From an uncultured Alphaproteobacteria bacterium (lineage in GTDB: Bacteria > Pseudomonadota > Alphaproteobacteria > Rs-D84): a DNA stretch of 64,000 bases. The notes under the pieces are model-generated. The model was not told where the DNA came from. It was given only the letters and a program-made list of their open reading frames with translations, and made no database searches. The stretch is from NCBI GenBank assembly GCA_949156565.1, contig CASCZI010000002.1:100611-164610 (forward strand). The letters are read 5' to 3'. Shown piece after piece: positions 10,634 through 31,873 of this stretch (position 1 is the stretch's first letter; each line of letters begins with the position of its first letter). The translations under genes and the position numbers were made by a program.

Positions 10634-10857
10634 AGATAAAGACCACCCTCCCCCCTTCGGGGTACTCCCTCGAGGGAGGAGAACTTGTCTTTGTGCCACG
10701 CTGAGTTTAAGTTCCCCTCCGGGGTCGGGGTGGCCGCGAAATCGGCCCCCGCAAAAATTGAAAATTTTTGTGGGTGATACCGACGGGGTGTTTTTTTTGC
10801 CCCCCACGGGGTCCAGTGGCGAATGCCCACAAAAGAGAGGATGGTTTATTTGAACTT
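10634..10857. repeat. GC-rich nested-palindrome MITE-like repeat, copy A (long form)
   Basis: The 5' end reads AAAGACCACCCTCCCC and the 3' end GGATGGTTTATTTGAACTT. The core is CTGAGTTTAAGTTCCCCTCCGGGG. A CCCCGCAAAAATTGAAAATTTTTGTGGG submodule is shared with copy C. The ORFs predicted here are spurious. Confidence 0.55.
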
Positions 10858-26250: not shown

Positions 26251-28506
26251 ATGGCACGCAAGTTCAACATTTTATCCAACAGCGCCGAAGGCAAAGGTCT
26301 GCGGATTTTTTCATCCGCCGCATACAAAGAACATGAACGCACGCCCATGGCGCGTACATTTTGGCGTATACGGTGGGCCTGTTATATCTGGTTGGTGTGT
26401 GCGTTGGGATTTTCATTGGCATTTGTGGTTGAACACATATGGCGATATGGATGGTCCCCGGCGACATTGGTATGGATAAAAACATATCTAACCCATGTGA
26501 TGACGACGGGTGGATTGGCCACGATGGCGGAAATTCCATCATGGGTTGCACGCACAATTTTCCGGACAGACATCATGTGCCTGGTTCCATTTTTGGCCAT
26601 TATTGCGTATTACTTTTTGGCCGACGCCACATTGGTTGATGAATTTAACCCCAATTCCAAGGATAAATTTGACGCCAAATCATCGAACAAGGCCACCGCC
26701 GAAGATATCGCCAAAATGGGCAAAAACGGTGGTAATTTATTCAAGGGTTTTATGATGGTCCTTGGGTATTTTAAGTACAAGGGTAAAATGACCGCCATGA
26801 TGTTTGACGAATGCCTCTCGGCGTTGTGCGTCGCGCCCCCCGGGACCGGTAAAACCGCGGGCGTGTGCGTCCCAACCATATTGGATTGCGACGGGGTGTC
26901 AATGATCATTAATGACCCGAAACCAGAATTAAAACAACAAACGTCTGGTTACCGGGCCAGTATTGGCCCCACATTCATTATGAACTGGGCCGGCCAAGAT
27001 GATCCGGCACGGGGCATCTATTACCCATCATGGAATCCGTTGTCACCCGAACACGTGCCATTTAATATGGAACAACGCGATCTGTATATTGATTCAATGT
27101 GCAAGGTGTTAATTCCCGACAACACGTCATCATCGGCCGATCCACACTGGTCTTTGACGGGGCGTGCGGGATTATCTGGTCTGATTCAATTTATTATTTC
27201 CAAAATCGAACGCGCCAAGGCCGATGATTATTTTTATTCCCGTCTGAATGCAGGCACATTTGATGCCGAAGATGCCGCTGTTTTAGGCGATTATTATCTG
27301 GCCATGATTCATGATCCAAATGCGTATGCGGCACACGCCATTTTGACACGCGGGGAATTAACGGCGCAAAACTATGTCCATATTGGTACATGGTCCAATA
27401 TCCCCGACGCATGGCACGGGAAAGAGGCATCGCTCTCTATGATTCTGGATTGGATGAACGCGAACCAGATCCGCATCGCCCAGGAAATGGAATCCCGTCG
27501 TCGCCAGGGGGATCAAATGGTCATGATGGCCGACCCCATGAAAGATCTGTTCGAAGACGCCGTCAAAGAAGCGCGCCAATTCGCCTATGCCCACCGCGCG
27601 ATTTTGGAATTAACGCAACTGGCCAATACCCCGGACAAGGAACGCGGATCCATCCTTTCGACGATTCAATCGGGCCTGGGGATATTCCGAAATGCCGCCG
27701 TTCGCAACCGGACCAGTCATTCGGACTTTCACTTTTCGGATCTGCGGGGCCTGCGCGATCCCCGCGACGGCAAGGTAAAGCCGGTGACGGTCTATCTTTC
27801 GATCAATCTGGTAGATGCCCAGGCGTTAAACCCCATTACCGGGATCTTTATCGAATTGATGTCAAATTACCTGTTGGCGAACGCCCCCAATACAACAAAC
27901 GCCAGTGGCCAGAAAATGGGCCCCTATCCCGTCTTGTTCGTGTTGGACGAAATGCCCAAGATGCAAAAACTTGACGCCGTGATTCAGGGACCTGACCTGG
28001 GGCGTGGGCAACAAATATCGTATTTAATTATTGGTCAGGATCTGCACCAGATCGCGGAAAAATACGGCCAAGACGCCGCCGCCACAATTATTTCCACAAC
28101 GGCCGGGAAAATCGTCTTGCGTCAAAATGACCCCGACAGTGCGAAACGCTTTTCCGAAATGATCGGGATGAAGGTGAAAAAGAAAATGGTAAAGGGACCT
28201 GACGGCAAAGAAACCGAAACGGATGACCGCGAACCCCTTTATTCCGAAATGGACATCATGAAATTACCAGAGGGCAAACAACTGGTCATTATTCAGGGAC
28301 ACTATAACCGCCCGATAGAGGCATCCCAAGAACGCTGGTTTAAAAATAAATCAGAGATCGAGAAAAAATTATATGCCAAAGTAATGATGGGCGAAGCGCC
28401 CCCCCTGCCTGAATTTTTGGTCCCATCCCATCACCGGGCATTGTCCTATCCGGGCGTACCAAAAATCTATTACCCGGCCACCAAAGAATTAAAGGTATTG
28501 GGATAA
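26251..28506 (+). CDS. type IV secretion coupling protein (VirD4/TraG family ATPase)
   Basis: Two N-terminal TM helices and a Walker A (VAPPGTGKTAG). It also has a DPKPEL motif, a Walker B (VLFVLDEMP) and a Q-x-x-x-QI...YG motif. The protein is 751 aa with a roughly 150-aa C-terminal extension. An alternative start lies at 26347. Confidence 0.8.
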   Translation: MARKFNILSNSAEGKGLRIFSSAAYKEHERTPMARTFWRIRWACYIWLVCALGFSLAFVVEHIWRYGWSPATLVWIKTYLTHVMTTGGLATMAEIPSWVARTIFRTDIMCLVPFLAIIAYYFLADATLVDEFNPNSKDKFDAKSSNKATAEDIAKMGKNGGNLFKGFMMVLGYFKYKGKMTAMMFDECLSALCVAPPGTGKTAGVCVPTILDCDGVSMIINDPKPELKQQTSGYRASIGPTFIMNWAGQDDPARGIYYPSWNPLSPEHVPFNMEQRDLYIDSMCKVLIPDNTSSSADPHWSLTGRAGLSGLIQFIISKIERAKADDYFYSRLNAGTFDAEDAAVLGDYYLAMIHDPNAYAAHAILTRGELTAQNYVHIGTWSNIPDAWHGKEASLSMILDWMNANQIRIAQEMESRRRQGDQMVMMADPMKDLFEDAVKEARQFAYAHRAILELTQLANTPDKERGSILSTIQSGLGIFRNAAVRNRTSHSDFHFSDLRGLRDPRDGKVKPVTVYLSINLVDAQALNPITGIFIELMSNYLLANAPNTTNASGQKMGPYPVLFVLDEMPKMQKLDAVIQGPDLGRGQQISYLIIGQDLHQIAEKYGQDAAATIISTTAGKIVLRQNDPDSAKRFSEMIGMKVKKKMVKGPDGKETETDDREPLYSEMDIMKLPEGKQLVIIQGHYNRPIEASQERWFKNKSEIEKKLYAKVMMGEAPPLPEFLVPSHHRALSYPGVPKIYYPATKELKVLG

Positions 28507-28604: not shown

Positions 28605-28636
28605 AAAAAACCGCCCATATGGGCGGTTTTTATTTA
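28605..28636. terminator. bidirectional rho-independent terminator
   Basis: CCGCCCATATGGGCGG hairpin flanked by an A-run and a T-run. Confidence 0.6.
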
Positions 28637-29848
28637 GCCATTTAATGCTTCGAACCCGACGGTCATATATAATGTTTTCCAATGTCCGGCATCTTTGCCC
28701 GTTGATTGCGGGTTGTTCCCCAGACTGCGACTGCGTTCGACGGTGGTCAACACCAAATCAGACCCCACACGTTCTAAAATTTTAAACGGATCAACACCGT
28801 CACGCCACGAATAGACGCCATCTTTTTCCACGACCAGTGCCCGGAATGCCCCCAGTATAGGATAAATAAATCCCGTTGGCGTCATATAATCCATCGGCTT
28901 TTGATAATACTTGGACATTGCCCCTTCGAATGGAACAACCCCCTTAATCGCACCATATTTACCGTTTGTAACCGCATTGCGATAGAAATCCGCCATAGAC
29001 ACTTCGATCTGATCATAAAGCTTGAAAATATCCACCATAATGTTTTTCATTTTCACATACGGATTCTGGGGCGAATCCTTATGCGCTTTATATTGCGATA
29101 AATACGTATCCAGACATCTCTTTTTTCCGCTGTATGAAATGGTTGCCGCCACATCTTTGCCGTCATATTGATCGATATTGAACATGTTTAAAACCGCCAA
29201 AACGTCCATGACGTCAATGTCCCCCCTTTCGTCATTTTCTTTGTACACCAAACGTGATGCAAACGGTTCGTTTTTTAACGCGTCTTTGACAATATCAAAC
29301 TTGTTTTCCAATTCGGCCAACGATTGATCTTTGACCTGAACCGATGTGTTACGGGCGCCGGCCAGCTCTTGAAAAATCGATTCAACCCCGGTCAATATTT
29401 CCAAACGCACATATTGTTGATCCGGCCCCAGGGAATCTTTGCATTGTTGAATAATTTTATAGGTGTGCCCCCCGTCCACGTTGCCATGCACCGCCGGATC
29501 TTCGAAAACCACACTTAATTCGTTATTATAATTGTTATAACTCACACTTTTCGCCGATAATAAGATCCCGCGATTCATTAAAAAGAAATACGGCGATCCC
29601 ACATCCATCAATGTGTTACGTATTCCCTTGGCCACAAATGTGGTTAATTTTTGTTCCCGCGGATTGGTTTCCATCGGAATATTGTTCGGCAATTTGGTCA
29701 CATCACACATCGCGATATAGGCCATCGGATGTGTCTGGGCGGAAAATTCCACCTCTTCCCCGATATAGGGATTGGGAATTTTCCGTAATGACTTTACCGG
29801 AAATTTTATTTCAATGGGTGCCTTTTGGGCTTTGATTTTTTCTGTCAT
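28634..29848 (-). CDS. putative abortive-infection/defence protein (AIPR-like; ParB/DGQHR-like N-terminal motif), tentative
   Basis: A 404-aa cytoplasmic protein. An FFLMNRGILLSA segment resembles the AIPR NNGIT block. A NVDGGHTYKII segment resembles the DGQHR/DGQQR motif of ParB-like nuclease domains. It is divergent from an XRE regulator and bracketed by terminators. Confidence 0.35.
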   Translation of the reverse strand: MTEKIKAQKAPIEIKFPVKSLRKIPNPYIGEEVEFSAQTHPMAYIAMCDVTKLPNNIPMETNPREQKLTTFVAKGIRNTLMDVGSPYFFLMNRGILLSAKSVSYNNYNNELSVVFEDPAVHGNVDGGHTYKIIQQCKDSLGPDQQYVRLEILTGVESIFQELAGARNTSVQVKDQSLAELENKFDIVKDALKNEPFASRLVYKENDERGDIDVMDVLAVLNMFNIDQYDGKDVAATISYSGKKRCLDTYLSQYKAHKDSPQNPYVKMKNIMVDIFKLYDQIEVSMADFYRNAVTNGKYGAIKGVVPFEGAMSKYYQKPMDYMTPTGFIYPILGAFRALVVEKDGVYSWRDGVDPFKILERVGSDLVLTTVERSRSLGNNPQSTGKDAGHWKTLYMTVGFEALNG

Positions 29849-29995
29849 TCTTTGCTCCTGTCTAAGGTTTGTTATCGGATACGCTGTCTAACGAGCCATC
29901 CATATTTAAATAATAAGACACCCAAATCATCAATTCAACGTCATATATGACGTTTTTTGCTTGCAAAATGCATTTTTTTAATAAAAAATTCGATC

Positions 29996-30214
29996 ATGAA
30001 CGACATTAATCGTGAATTTGGCCAAATTTTACGCCGTTTTCGACGGGGACGTAATTTGCCCCAGGATAAATTTGCCGACCAATGCGGGATTAGTCGCGCC
30101 TATTACGGGCGCATTGAACGCGGCGAATACAGTCCTACGATCACCCTATGCCATCGAATTGCGACGGCCCTGTCGATCACGATGGATGATCTTTTTCGTG
30201 ATATGCCCATATAA
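29996..30214 (+). CDS. XRE-family helix-turn-helix transcriptional regulator
   Basis: About 72 aa, with the Cro/C1-type HTH (QDKFADQCGISRAYYGRIERGEYSPTI). The start is taken at MNDIN; the ORF track begins at 29957. Confidence 0.7.
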   Translation: MNDINREFGQILRRFRRGRNLPQDKFADQCGISRAYYGRIERGEYSPTITLCHRIATALSITMDDLFRDMPI

Positions 30215-30257
30215 TCCCCCCCTGTTTCTTTGGACCGGGGGATGGATCAATCGTAAT

Positions 30258-31043
30258 TTATTCCATCCGATACGTTGTGCCACCAACCGTCACATGAATC
30301 CCGGTGCCATGGCCGGCCGTCAAATTTCCGTAACAGATGCCGCCCGGCGTCCGAATGACCAGTGTCGGCGTCGTATATTTAACCGGGAACAATGGCGCAG
30401 TATTGGTTCCGGCGTGAATTTGCGTTACCCCCGCCGTACAGAGCGGTTGGCACACGTCCCCGACGCGCCCATATCCCGCGTCACATTCCCACGGGCAATC
30501 ATTGGCGTCCGTGATGGACCCATCGGGCGCGTCGGGGGTACCCGGACCGGTATAGTGCGCGTGCGCGGGGGCATTGGTACACGGGCGGACATTGTGATAC
30601 CATTTTTTCCAGGATTCGTTACGATAACCCGACAAATAAAATCCCCATCCCGCATCATACCAAAGATAACGGGTTTGATCATCCGACCAATAGTTTTCCC
30701 CATTCCAAGAGACTTCAAGCAAGAATGAATTTCCATCAGAATCACGGAAATACAAACTACCCGCACAATTAAAGATGCTGGAATTGTTTTGGGGGCTGGC
30801 CCAGTTTGCCTCTGATCCGTCAAAAAAGGTATAGCCAAATTGGTTATAATCCGTATCGGTCGTGGGGCACGGATGGCGAACATCATCCCCCGGACAATAA
30901 TAGGGTTCATAGCCCGGGGAACAGTTTGAACACGACCCATTATTCAGATAATACCCCGCCGCACATATTGCCGCATGGGCCGTCGCCCCGCCGCCCAAGA
31001 AGACGGCGACCACGCCCAAAAAACCGACAGTTTTTTTAGGCAT
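30258..31043 (-). CDS. secreted cysteine-rich protein (C-x-AG-Y-Y family)
   Basis: A 261-aa ORF with a signal peptide. It contains CAAGYYLNNGSCSNCSPGYEPYYC and CDAGYGRVGDVCQPLC, with many Trp and Tyr residues. Confidence 0.55.
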   Translation of the reverse strand: MPKKTVGFLGVVAVFLGGGATAHAAICAAGYYLNNGSCSNCSPGYEPYYCPGDDVRHPCPTTDTDYNQFGYTFFDGSEANWASPQNNSSIFNCAGSLYFRDSDGNSFLLEVSWNGENYWSDDQTRYLWYDAGWGFYLSGYRNESWKKWYHNVRPCTNAPAHAHYTGPGTPDAPDGSITDANDCPWECDAGYGRVGDVCQPLCTAGVTQIHAGTNTAPLFPVKYTTPTLVIRTPGGICYGNLTAGHGTGIHVTVGGTTYRME

Positions 31044-31220: not shown

Positions 31221-31352
31221 AAATAAAAGACCACCTCTCCCCTTCGTGGCACCCCTCCACCGGAGGGGAACCTGGACCGAACAAGCCTGAGTCTCAGTTC
31301 TCCTCCTGTGGAGGAGTACCCCGAAGGGGAGAGGTGGTCTTTACTTGAACTC
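31221..31352. repeat. GC-rich nested-palindrome MITE-like repeat, copy B (compact form)
   Basis: Perfect terminal inverted repeats: AAAGACCACCTCTCCCCTTCG at 31226-31246 and CGAAGGGGAGAGGTGGTCTTT at 31322-31342. Internal hairpins are CCCTCCACCGGAGGG and CTCCTCCTGTGGAGGAG. The core reads CTGAGTCTCAGTTCTCCTC. Confidence 0.6.
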
Positions 31353-31450: not shown

Positions 31451-31873
31451 ATGATGAATCCGGTATTCAAAGAACAGATTCTTAGTTTAGCAAAATCCAA
31501 CCCGATCACCTTTCGCCGGACCGAGGTCGAAGAAGTATACTCTATTCAAGATTCGAATAATCAGCCATTAATCCATCTGATCAAAACCCTGCGTTCGGGA
31601 ACCTATGCATTGGTGATCAATCGCGCGATTGTTGTACGGGCCACATTTCCCGACGATCGGTTGGGCGCGAAATTACAAGACCTGATGGACGTTATGGAAA
31701 TCGAATCAACATGCAATCGCACTGTTCTGGAACGGGCAGAGTATCGACAAACACTTGAAAAGATGTCCGATCATGAAAGACGTGCCTCTAACTTTATCAA
31801 TGACGTCATGTTACAGCAATACAAAGAAAAAAACATGTTGTTGCCGCACGAGAAGAAATCATTAACCCGTTAA
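31451..31873 (+). CDS. hypothetical protein
   Basis: A 140-aa ORF with no recognisable motifs; a terminator follows. Confidence 0.4.
   Translation: MMNPVFKEQILSLAKSNPITFRRTEVEEVYSIQDSNNQPLIHLIKTLRSGTYALVINRAIVVRATFPDDRLGAKLQDLMDVMEIESTCNRTVLERAEYRQTLEKMSDHERRASNFINDVMLQQYKEKNMLLPHEKKSLTR

Follow-up and report, generated by a model that had tools for sequence, protein, structure and literature searches.

Organization of the XRE-AIPR locus

This analysis concerns a 64,000-nt stretch of DNA (the window; all coordinates are window positions), probably from a gut alphaproteobacterium, and within it two divergent genes encoding a 404-amino acid (aa) protein of the AIPR family and a small helix-turn-helix (HTH) regulator of the XRE (Cro/C1) type. 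The XRE gene, the short AIPR gene and the control region between them are inherited as one unit. The intergenic region comprises 147 bp and contains a predicted promoter of the AIPR gene, a palindromic operator and a leader stem-loop (Table 1).

A sequence-only reading of this DNA had described the locus as a terminator-bounded islet with a putative abortive-infection protein divergent from an XRE regulator. The 404-aa open reading frame (ORF) was confirmed, together with its good ribosome-binding site, and homologous loci carry a GGAG or AGGAG element at the matching position. The divergent neighbour was also confirmed as an HTH_3/HTH_31 protein; its start, previously placed at TTG 29957, is most likely ATG 29996, on which public gene calls and the N-termini of homologues agree. 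Of the strong terminators postulated on both sides only the left one stood. It forms the left edge of the cassette, is common to the AIPR gene and the convergent virD4-like gene, and folds with a minimum free energy of -19.7 and -20.1 kcal/mol in the two directions (z = -4.8 and -6.3 against shuffled sequences). The terminator on the XRE side was unsupported, as the candidate region at 30205-30265 folded like shuffled sequences (z = -0.5 and -0.7), lacks a T-run and was missed by the terminator scan. A terminator call of the same scan at 29937-29954 was rejected, since the site represents the conserved operator palindrome instead.

Table 1. Genes and sequence elements of the XRE-AIPR locus and its flanks (window positions)
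Feature	Position	Strand	Evidence or description
virD4-like gene	26251-28506	+	T4SS-DNA_transf, E 3.8e-49; convergent with the AIPR gene
Bidirectional intrinsic terminator	28606-28631	both	11-bp GC-rich stem, T-runs on both strands
Short-form AIPR gene (404 aa), presumed effector	28634-29848	-	Pfam PF10592, E 2.7e-29
Shine-Dalgarno sequence AGGAG	29855-29859	-	sequence inspection; 6 nt 5' of the AIPR ATG
Leader stem-loop (predicted 5' end of the AIPR transcript)	29873-29905 (core 29877-29901, GGAUGGCUCGUUAGACAGCGUAUCC)	-	covariance
Predicted sigma-70 promoter of the AIPR gene	29910-29938	-	promoter scan, 9/12 matches
Operator, perfect 18-bp palindrome AACGTCATATATGACGTT, presumed XRE site	29937-29954	.	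comparative
XRE/Cro-C1 HTH regulator gene (72 aa)	29996-30214	+	HTH_3, E 3e-13
Cys-rich ORF (261 aa)	30258-31043	-	signal-peptide-like N-terminus
Palindromic element (117 bp)	31226-31342		46-nt arms, 89% complementary
ORF (140 aa)	31451-31873	+	no family match

The 404-aa protein is a short-form member of the AIPR family

The assignment to AIPR was borne out by Pfam, as PF10592 matched residues 60-376 of the protein at model positions 2-299 of 308 with 103.3 bits, far above the gathering cut-off of 25. The lack of a housekeeping assignment also held, since neither Pfam nor NCBIfam provided one. AIPR was likewise matched by 110 of 113 diverse relatives. The two sequence blocks on which the earlier assignment had relied are real and constitute the most conserved parts of the family, FFLMNRG (F88, N92, G94) and VDGGHTY (D125-G-G-H128-T129). 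Among the 113 diverse representatives, residues N62, R64, F88, N92, G94, G122, D125, G126, G127, H128 and T129 are invariant or at least 90% conserved, and the window protein has kept all family-invariant residues. Conservation is densest in the N-terminal half, which also contains V147, E150 and N167; further conserved residues are P235, P330, R336 and W390.

A word-indexed protein search yielded over 1,500 homologues, with lengths of about 390-400 aa. The best are AIPR-only proteins of 390-420 aa with 56-61% identity, the closest non-self sequence being 61% identical. The window protein is about equally distant (56-61%) from its close relatives, which are 66% identical among themselves (median). 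When representatives at 50% identity were searched exhaustively, 1,152 clusters scored E<=1e-3, of which 236 reached E<=1e-30; most are of about 400 aa. The AIPR gene is an ordinary member of a widespread, biochemically unstudied family. The proposed defence or toxin module does contain an AIPR-family protein within a conserved cassette, as described below, but the novelty of the system was overstated: the short AIPR form accounts for more than 1,100 clusters at 50% identity and has already been named by NCBI.

The closest known systems include the AbiU1-type proteins, with which the window protein has in common the AIPR domain, the NPR, NRG and DGGHT motifs and an occurrence in the style of mobile elements and defence islands. 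However, AbiU1-type proteins comprise about 540-600 aa as compared to about 400, and their N-terminal region of about 245 residues, described as HEPN (PMC3506569), is absent here. The AbiU model (PADLOC PDLC02357) aligns residues 62-107 to its positions 248-293 of 537, thus only from position 248 onwards, indicating that the protein lacks the AbiU1-type N-terminal part. No HEPN or other N-terminal domain was found in the Pfam scan, in which the AIPR domain starts at residue 60. Unlike AbiU, the short AIPR proteins of the window type possess a conserved 60-residue N-terminus of their own (R22, P25-N-P27, D49) and an obligatory XRE partner. NCBIfam gave no match to the window protein at E<=10, including the MzaE model NF041935, and PHROGs contains no family for it. 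With respect to the MzaE family, the neighbours of the window gene are the VirD4 gene, the XRE gene and the Cys-rich ORF.

The XRE and AIPR genes form a conserved cassette in variable surroundings

Taking one genome per species, 125 stretches encoding AIPR relatives were obtained, and the best 80 were analysed as loci (designated by L numbers). These are overwhelmingly from gut-metagenome Bacillota (Clostridia, Bacilli, Erysipelotrichales, Acholeplasmataceae), with scattered copies in Sumerlaeota, Corallococcus, Cloacimonadota, spirochaetes, Muribaculaceae, Psychrobacter and Pelistega. Upstream sequence sufficient for evaluation was available for 75 loci, almost all from Bacillota. Searches with the window XRE (phmmer) identified an XRE orthologue immediately 5' of the AIPR gene in 66 of these 75 loci, 59 times in divergent and seven times in co-directional orientation, with E values of about 1e-17 to 1e-25 in the closer loci. 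The pairing with an XRE regulator noted before is therefore not accidental but reflects a two-gene cassette that has been kept in 66 of 75 loci.

An all-against-all clustering of the neighbouring ORFs revealed XRE as the sole constant partner (65 loci). The next commonest neighbour is a protein of about 730 aa with a weak GHKL (HATPase_c_3) signature, encoded co-directionally just 3' of the AIPR gene in 16 of the 80 loci, followed by integrases (seven loci), Dcm methylases (six) and DndB directly downstream (three). A Pfam survey of 124 flanking proteins returned 134 families, none of them more than three times; the commonest include DndB, a Schlafen-type helicase, a D12 methylase, a phage integrase, Fic, an AbiEii-like AAA_21 protein and a DncV-like cyclase. 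A constant XRE gene within variable flanks is the pattern of an autonomous unit that lands in variable or defence-rich regions.

According to one alternative, which we consider quite improbable, the AIPR protein would be no effector but a stand-alone regulator akin to DndB, or an accessory factor of systems for DNA modification or restriction. It would sense or limit DNA modification or support a nuclease whose gene lies elsewhere, as may be the case for MzaE or DndB in their own systems. The neighbourhoods argue against such a role, as no such partner is adjacent in most loci or in the window, where the neighbours are VirD4, the Cys-rich ORF and core genes, and XRE is the only constant partner.

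The XRE-AIPR pair is also plasmid-borne, in Enterococcus (pML21, 5.6 kb) and in Terribacillus, where NCBI already uses the names 'AIPR family protein' and, beside it, 'helix-turn-helix transcriptional regulator'. A phage origin of the cassette was rejected, with a single match among 50,697 phage records (35% identity) and a single IMG/VR locus. The plasmid copies bear on the possibility that the cassette is an addiction or stabilisation module of mobile elements. In such a module a toxin-like AIPR protein would be held down by XRE without any role in defence, and loss of the cassette, and thereby of a short-lived repressor, would harm the cell, resulting in selfish persistence. This would agree with the small plasmid, which carries little besides Rep and an epsilon-antitoxin gene, with the integrases that adjoin the cassette in several loci, and with a layout of regulator and effector like that of a toxin-antitoxin pair, XRE also matching HipB- and PezA-type antitoxin models weakly. 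However, 59 of the 66 pairs are divergent and do not represent an antitoxin-first operon, and XRE is a bare 72-aa HTH protein without a toxin-binding extension. In addition, post-segregational killing by means of a purely transcriptional repressor would need special protein half-lives, and the window copy is located between core genes with no mobile-element genes around. We therefore regard an addiction module as unlikely.

Several individual neighbourhoods were recorded. The AIPR gene together with that of the ~730-aa GHKL protein (L043, 7106-9388, and 15 further loci) makes up a three-gene variant reminiscent of MORC/Mza-type systems. A bona fide DndB (Pfam E 4.5e-113, DGQHR motif) is encoded directly 3' of the XRE-AIPR pair in three Oscillospiraceae-type genomes (L065, 7260-8327; L066, 7199-8329; L078, 7211-8341), and in L062 a DUF262 protein lies near AIPR. 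One AIPR protein (P0021) is found beside an integrase and a 200-aa HTH protein at the edge of an integrative element when L007, L009 and L010 are compared with L008, L011 and L012; in some P0021 copies the upstream XRE gene is replaced by other genes, beside a reverse-transcriptase/Big_3 block resembling a diversity-generating retroelement. In the most distant clade (L088-L094, 39-41% identity) a 74-aa HTH_26 gene is located immediately 3' of AIPR in five loci, and the upstream XRE gene, the operator and the hairpin were all not found.

A conserved palindrome fused to the predicted AIPR promoter

The predicted AIPR promoter consists of the -35 hexamer TTGAAT (29938-29933), a 17-nt spacer and the -10 hexamer TATTAT (29915-29910). 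The operator palindrome is fused with its 3' end to the -35 hexamer, and its centre is positioned about 43 bp upstream of the predicted transcription start. Homologous loci display the same -35/-10 geometry 3' of the operator. The 16-bp core of the palindrome, ACGTCATATATGACGT, was identified with at most three mismatches, abutting the AIPR -35 region, in 47 of the 75 loci, at a distance of 42-150 nt, mostly 80-140 nt, from the AIPR start, as compared to four sites in the remaining 884 kb. Other clades carry the variant palindromes ACGCTATATATAGCGT or ACCGCATATATGCGGT at the same place. The exact 20-mer of the operator plus TTGA occurred in 18 metagenome contigs, 13 of which contain XRE-AIPR cassettes (two truncated at a contig end). 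The other five (L107, L110, L112, L116, L118) were dismissed as a coding coincidence, the sequence there encoding NVIYDVD within a reverse-transcriptase-like ORF.

The recognition helix of XRE varies together with the half-site. It reads SRAYYGR(I/V/L)ERGE wherever the half-site is ACG(T/C)(C/T) and N(E/A/D)K(H/Y)YG in the four loci with ACCGC half-sites; SRTYLCK occurs in three loci, two of which carry a different palindrome, AGATCTAGATCT. This co-variation supports binding of the palindrome by XRE, short of proof. A centre near -43 fits both steric repression and class II activation; the same geometry is known from lambda cI at PRM, a class II activator, and from C proteins.

C proteins are also the nearest relatives of the regulator with a solved structure. 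The best PADLOC model for XRE was 'Control_protein' (E 1.4e-14), and the closest solved chains, which are the top PDB sequence matches, are C.BclI (2B5A, E 5.4e-10) and C.AhdI (1Y7Y, E 1.2e-7), small HTH proteins akin to the window XRE. C-protein circuits and the window cassette are both horizontally mobile units, and in both a palindromic site is located by the -35 region of a gene for a potentially harmful DNA-acting protein. In contrast to the usual tandem C-boxes, the window cassette has one palindrome, and cassettes of its type are mostly divergent, whereas C-protein systems form a C-R operon. Moreover, the presumed target of XRE is the AIPR gene without a methylase, and the conserved 5' leader hairpin is an addition compared to C-protein systems. 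No restriction endonuclease or methyltransferase gene was identified in the cassette or its flanks by window ORFs, Pfam or annotation.

A leader hairpin is conserved upstream of the AIPR gene

In most loci, the -10 region is directly followed by a stem-loop of the form RGAUG-stem-loop-stem-G-UAUCY at a fixed distance of 51-55 nt from the operator start; altogether, the hairpin is present in 50 of the 80 loci. Thirty distinct sequences, chosen by a pattern that required three inner pairs, were aligned. The consensus structure calculated by RNAalifold was identical to the one independently drawn by hand, and AUG...G-UAU, an A-U and a U-A pair, a G.U wobble and a bulged G are invariant. Pairing was found in 95.3% of the cells compared to 75.3% in column shuffles, none of 500 of which reached the observed value, and seven of the ten pairs displayed compensatory changes. 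When the registers were slid by one to three columns, 18-60% were paired. The G.U pairs are confined to the AIPR sense strand, which argues for an RNA structure and not a DNA site.

As the 30 sequences had been pre-selected by their pairing pattern, a covariance model was built and run on both strands of 973 kb. All 52 matches at E<=1 were located on the AIPR sense strand, 40-100 nt 5' of the AIPR start, and the window hairpin scored 31.3 bits. Sixteen of the loci lie outside the training set, some of them without canonical operator or detected XRE. In the alignment of the new loci (17 matches, including one extra weak match in L062), 97% of the cells were paired and eight of ten pairs showed compensatory changes. 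Rfam gave no match at the gathering threshold for the whole window and nothing meaningful at E<=10 for the intergenic region. The hairpin represents a candidate new cis-regulatory RNA motif, which most obviously might stabilise the 5' end of the mRNA or offer a control site to a binding protein. An upstream ORF starting from the ATG inside the hairpin was rejected, as in the window it ends after three codons and has no Shine-Dalgarno sequence. Directly ahead of the Shine-Dalgarno sequence, on the 3' side of the leader hairpin, many Bacillota loci (e.g., L020, L021, L022, L039, L087) contain another short hairpin (e.g., GUGUCCCGAGAGACAC), which is absent from the window copy.

The N-terminal half of the AIPR protein is likely related to ParB, DndB and DUF262 domains

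An AlphaFold2 model of the AIPR protein (pLDDT 87.6) predicts an alpha/beta N-terminal half (residues ~10-165) followed by a mainly helical C-terminal half; the N-terminal domain modelled alone reached a pLDDT of 88.3 and a pTM of 0.83. Foldseek comparison with predicted viral structures (BFVD) yielded phage AIPR-like proteins as top matches (E 8e-8 and 6e-7). The weak matches at E 0.003-1.1 comprised an HNH-domain protein, GmrSD-N and DUF262, as well as two 'DNA-sulfur modification-associated' proteins (probability 0.80 and 0.60) and three ParB-type proteins. Hits to kinase N-lobes and MmpL in the PDB were considered as noise (TM score < 0.2), and sequence searches of the PDB, for which the protein and an 86-sequence profile served as queries, gave nothing.

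The sequence-only reading had likened the DGGHT block to the corresponding motif of DndB, DUF262 and ParB-like domains. The window protein itself has no direct match to DndB, DUF262 or ParB hidden Markov models in Pfam or NCBIfam, and among the relatives weak matches occurred to DndB in two of 113 and to DGQHR in one of 113. In a profile-profile comparison (hhalign), the AIPR profile was aligned to a profile made of the bona fide DndB adjoining the AIPR gene in L066 and 56 homologues, with P = 0.037 over 93 columns. NPREQ was aligned to EYRAQR and DGGHT to DGQHR, thus the block does align with the DndB motif in the correct register. No meaningful alignment was obtained with a single DUF262 protein. 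In line with this, comparative work has placed AbiU1/AIPR with DndB in the ParB superfamily (PMC3632139, PMC3506569), and an HHpred probability of 91% was given for another AIPR protein against DndB (PMC8546572). The order and register of motifs in DndB/DUF262 proteins (GmrSD-N, SspE-N) are common with AIPR and consist of an (N/Q)R loop, a helix, a hydrophobic strand, and a strand-DGxH(R/T)-helix element. In contrast, the motif reads DGQHR/DGQQR there but DGGHT in the window protein, which, unlike that branch, has no HNH/DUF1524 nuclease domain. The signals are weak but mutually consistent, and kinship of AIPR with ParB/DndB/DUF262, as judged from profiles and predicted structures, is likely but not established.

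The cassette is an accessory insertion in its host lineage

The exact proteins were identified on a 351,708-bp contig of the metagenome-assembled genome GCA_948993165.1 and on GCA_949738905.1, and a third assembly contains a copy with 99% identity. Neighbouring core genes comprise mraY, ftsW, murG, a penicillin-binding protein gene, rsmE, a pseudouridine synthase gene, der and fba. Hundreds of orthologues of the VirD4-like protein, a coupling protein of the VirD4/TraG type, were found with 70-88% identity, and those with names are mostly from metagenome-assembled genomes labelled 'Alphaproteobacteria bacterium' or 'Rickettsiales bacterium'. Four relatives (VirD4 identity 87, 84, 74 and 74%) were compared, and all keep a block of a tetratricopeptide-repeat gene, an rluB-like gene, rsmE and virD4; across the orthologues, the virD4-like gene is always located beside this block. 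None of them contains an AIPR gene or islet-like DNA after virD4; instead, virD4 is followed by a lipoprotein-like gene, by an unrelated 117-aa HTH gene and then pheT, by a PQQ_2 gene, or directly by pheT. As the relatives keep the rsmE-virD4 block without the cassette, the latter is an accessory insertion, and an ordinary one for the host genome. Conserved synteny with core genes, which would have spoken against the earlier interpretation, was not observed, since the relatives with 74-87% identical VirD4 are without the cassette. The DNA 3' of virD4 differs in every relative examined, indicating a local hotspot or a synteny breakpoint.

The composition of the AIPR gene is not atypical (GC content 0.437 as compared to a gene mean of 0.479, standard deviation 0.03; GC content at third codon positions 0.491 as compared to 0.504), and the compositional test for a recent transfer was negative. 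Together with the equal distance from its relatives, this ordinary composition suggests an old transfer or an unsampled donor. Neither tRNA genes nor flanking direct repeats or att-like sites were found, therefore no integration mechanism can be assigned. Acquisition by transfer is further supported by the homologues, which are almost all from Bacillota and at most 61% identical, and by the plasmid-borne pairs. As the window copy shows, the unit has passed from gut Bacillota to a lineage of the Alphaproteobacteria without loss of its control region, and hence the control logic is portable across phyla.

The already ameliorated composition and the long branch, with 56-61% identity to all relatives, would also suit a non-functional relic of an old transfer that was kept by chance. 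Such a relic is very improbable in view of the intact ORF, the preservation of all family-invariant residues as well as the ribosome-binding site, promoter, operator and hairpin, and the identity of the protein in two independent metagenome-assembled genomes and its 99% identity in the third assembly. Another explanation would tie the AIPR protein to the adjacent VirD4, as an Osa-like ParB/Srx modulator of type IV secretion or conjugation. In favour of this, the AIPR and virD4-like genes converge on a common terminator, and Osa and other ParB/Srx proteins have been cited as effectors in conflicts between conjugative plasmids (reference 19 as cited in PMC10853773). However, the VirD4 orthologues of the relatives have no adjoining AIPR gene, on which grounds a functional link to VirD4 was rejected, and the families most often encoded beside AIPR in the 80 loci include none of the VirD4 type. 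We therefore consider an Osa-like modulator extremely improbable.

Proposed function of the XRE-AIPR cassette

Based on sequence comparison and on analogy to related systems, we lean towards the view that the locus is an autonomous cassette of two genes, acquired by horizontal transfer and of the defence-island type, which would mediate abortive infection or a restriction-like defence. A role in defence is indicated by the Abi-family label of AIPR, its link to restriction-modification, the presence of MzaE in a validated system and the neighbourhoods of AIPR genes. In genomic surveys, PF10592 is regularly classed among the Abi defence families (PMC10121019), and AIPR is frequently linked to restriction-modification (PMC3506569, PMC2292703). 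The AIPR protein MzaE is a component of the validated MzaABCDE anti-phage system (NCBIfam NF041935; bioRxiv 10.1101/2022.06.16.496414; Gao et al. 2020). Abortive infection or toxicity as such is inferred from the family name and from gene neighbourhoods.

In the proposed mechanism, an XRE dimer would bind the operator and set the transcription of the AIPR gene, with tight repression as the favoured mode. The leader hairpin may add a post-transcriptional layer, either by affecting mRNA stability or as a protein-binding site. The AIPR protein would be the effector, in which a putative DndB/DUF262-like (ParB/Srx) nucleotide- or DNA-binding domain around N62-P-R64, N92-R-G94 and D125-G-G-H-T129 in the N-terminal half would be followed by a helical domain. 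By analogy to the ParB/Srx superfamily and from the AIPR neighbourhoods, it would most likely act on invading DNA or on the nucleotide pool, and the targets of an abortive-infection or restriction-like action may be phages or other mobile DNA.

A number of results weigh against this model. The term 'abortive infection' is a label that originates from lactococcal AbiU1, whose N-terminal ~245 residues are absent here, and the literature searched turned up no experiment on a short-form AIPR protein. PADLOC provided no convincing defence-model match for the AIPR protein (AbiU, E 0.0076 over 46 residues), which does not match MzaE either and contains no recognisable nuclease, HEPN or other effector domain. 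Foldseek found no match in the PDB (best E 0.58 for the full model and 0.14 for the N-terminal domain), which leaves a ParB-like fold and any enzymatic activity weakly supported. The window hairpin is thermodynamically ordinary (-8.6 kcal/mol, z = -0.3), its support being comparative, and sequence alone does not give the sign of the regulation by XRE.

A more specific proposal, possible though doubtful, is that XRE, operator, hairpin and short AIPR protein constitute a self-contained, unnamed anti-phage system, in which AIPR would form a new enzymatic branch of ParB/DndB proteins and the hairpin would function as a specific control or sensing element. The hairpin might then be bound by AIPR itself or by a phage factor and not be a passive stabiliser of the mRNA.

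Regardless of the exact role, the literature searched contains no description of a short AIPR protein plus a C-like XRE regulator as a conserved cassette, and also no operator, specificity co-variation or covarying leader hairpin for it. The cassette, the operator/specificity co-variation and the leader hairpin are thus modest but concrete additions. Most genomic surveys include AIPR among the defence families, but the literature searched gave no study of how the domain acts. The cassette represents a minimal form, with one regulator, one operator, one leader RNA and one protein of about 400 aa, and as this form is spread over more than 1,100 sequence clusters, it provides a convenient entry point for biochemistry.

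Flanking elements

Beyond the XRE gene, the 261-aa ORF is rich in Cys, Tyr, Gly and Trp. Neither Pfam nor NCBIfam gave a match for it, and it was left uncalled in one public contig annotation. The exact sequence of the 140-aa ORF further downstream is absent from the protein collection, where a 139-aa version has been called. Just past the Cys-rich ORF lies the 117-bp palindromic element, which looks like a repeat of the REP/MITE type (repetitive extragenic palindrome/miniature inverted-repeat transposable element) and probably corresponds to the 'repeat copy B' of the sequence-only reading. A related 39-nt copy is located about 20 kb away at 10647-10685, and the cassette is not bracketed by the pair.

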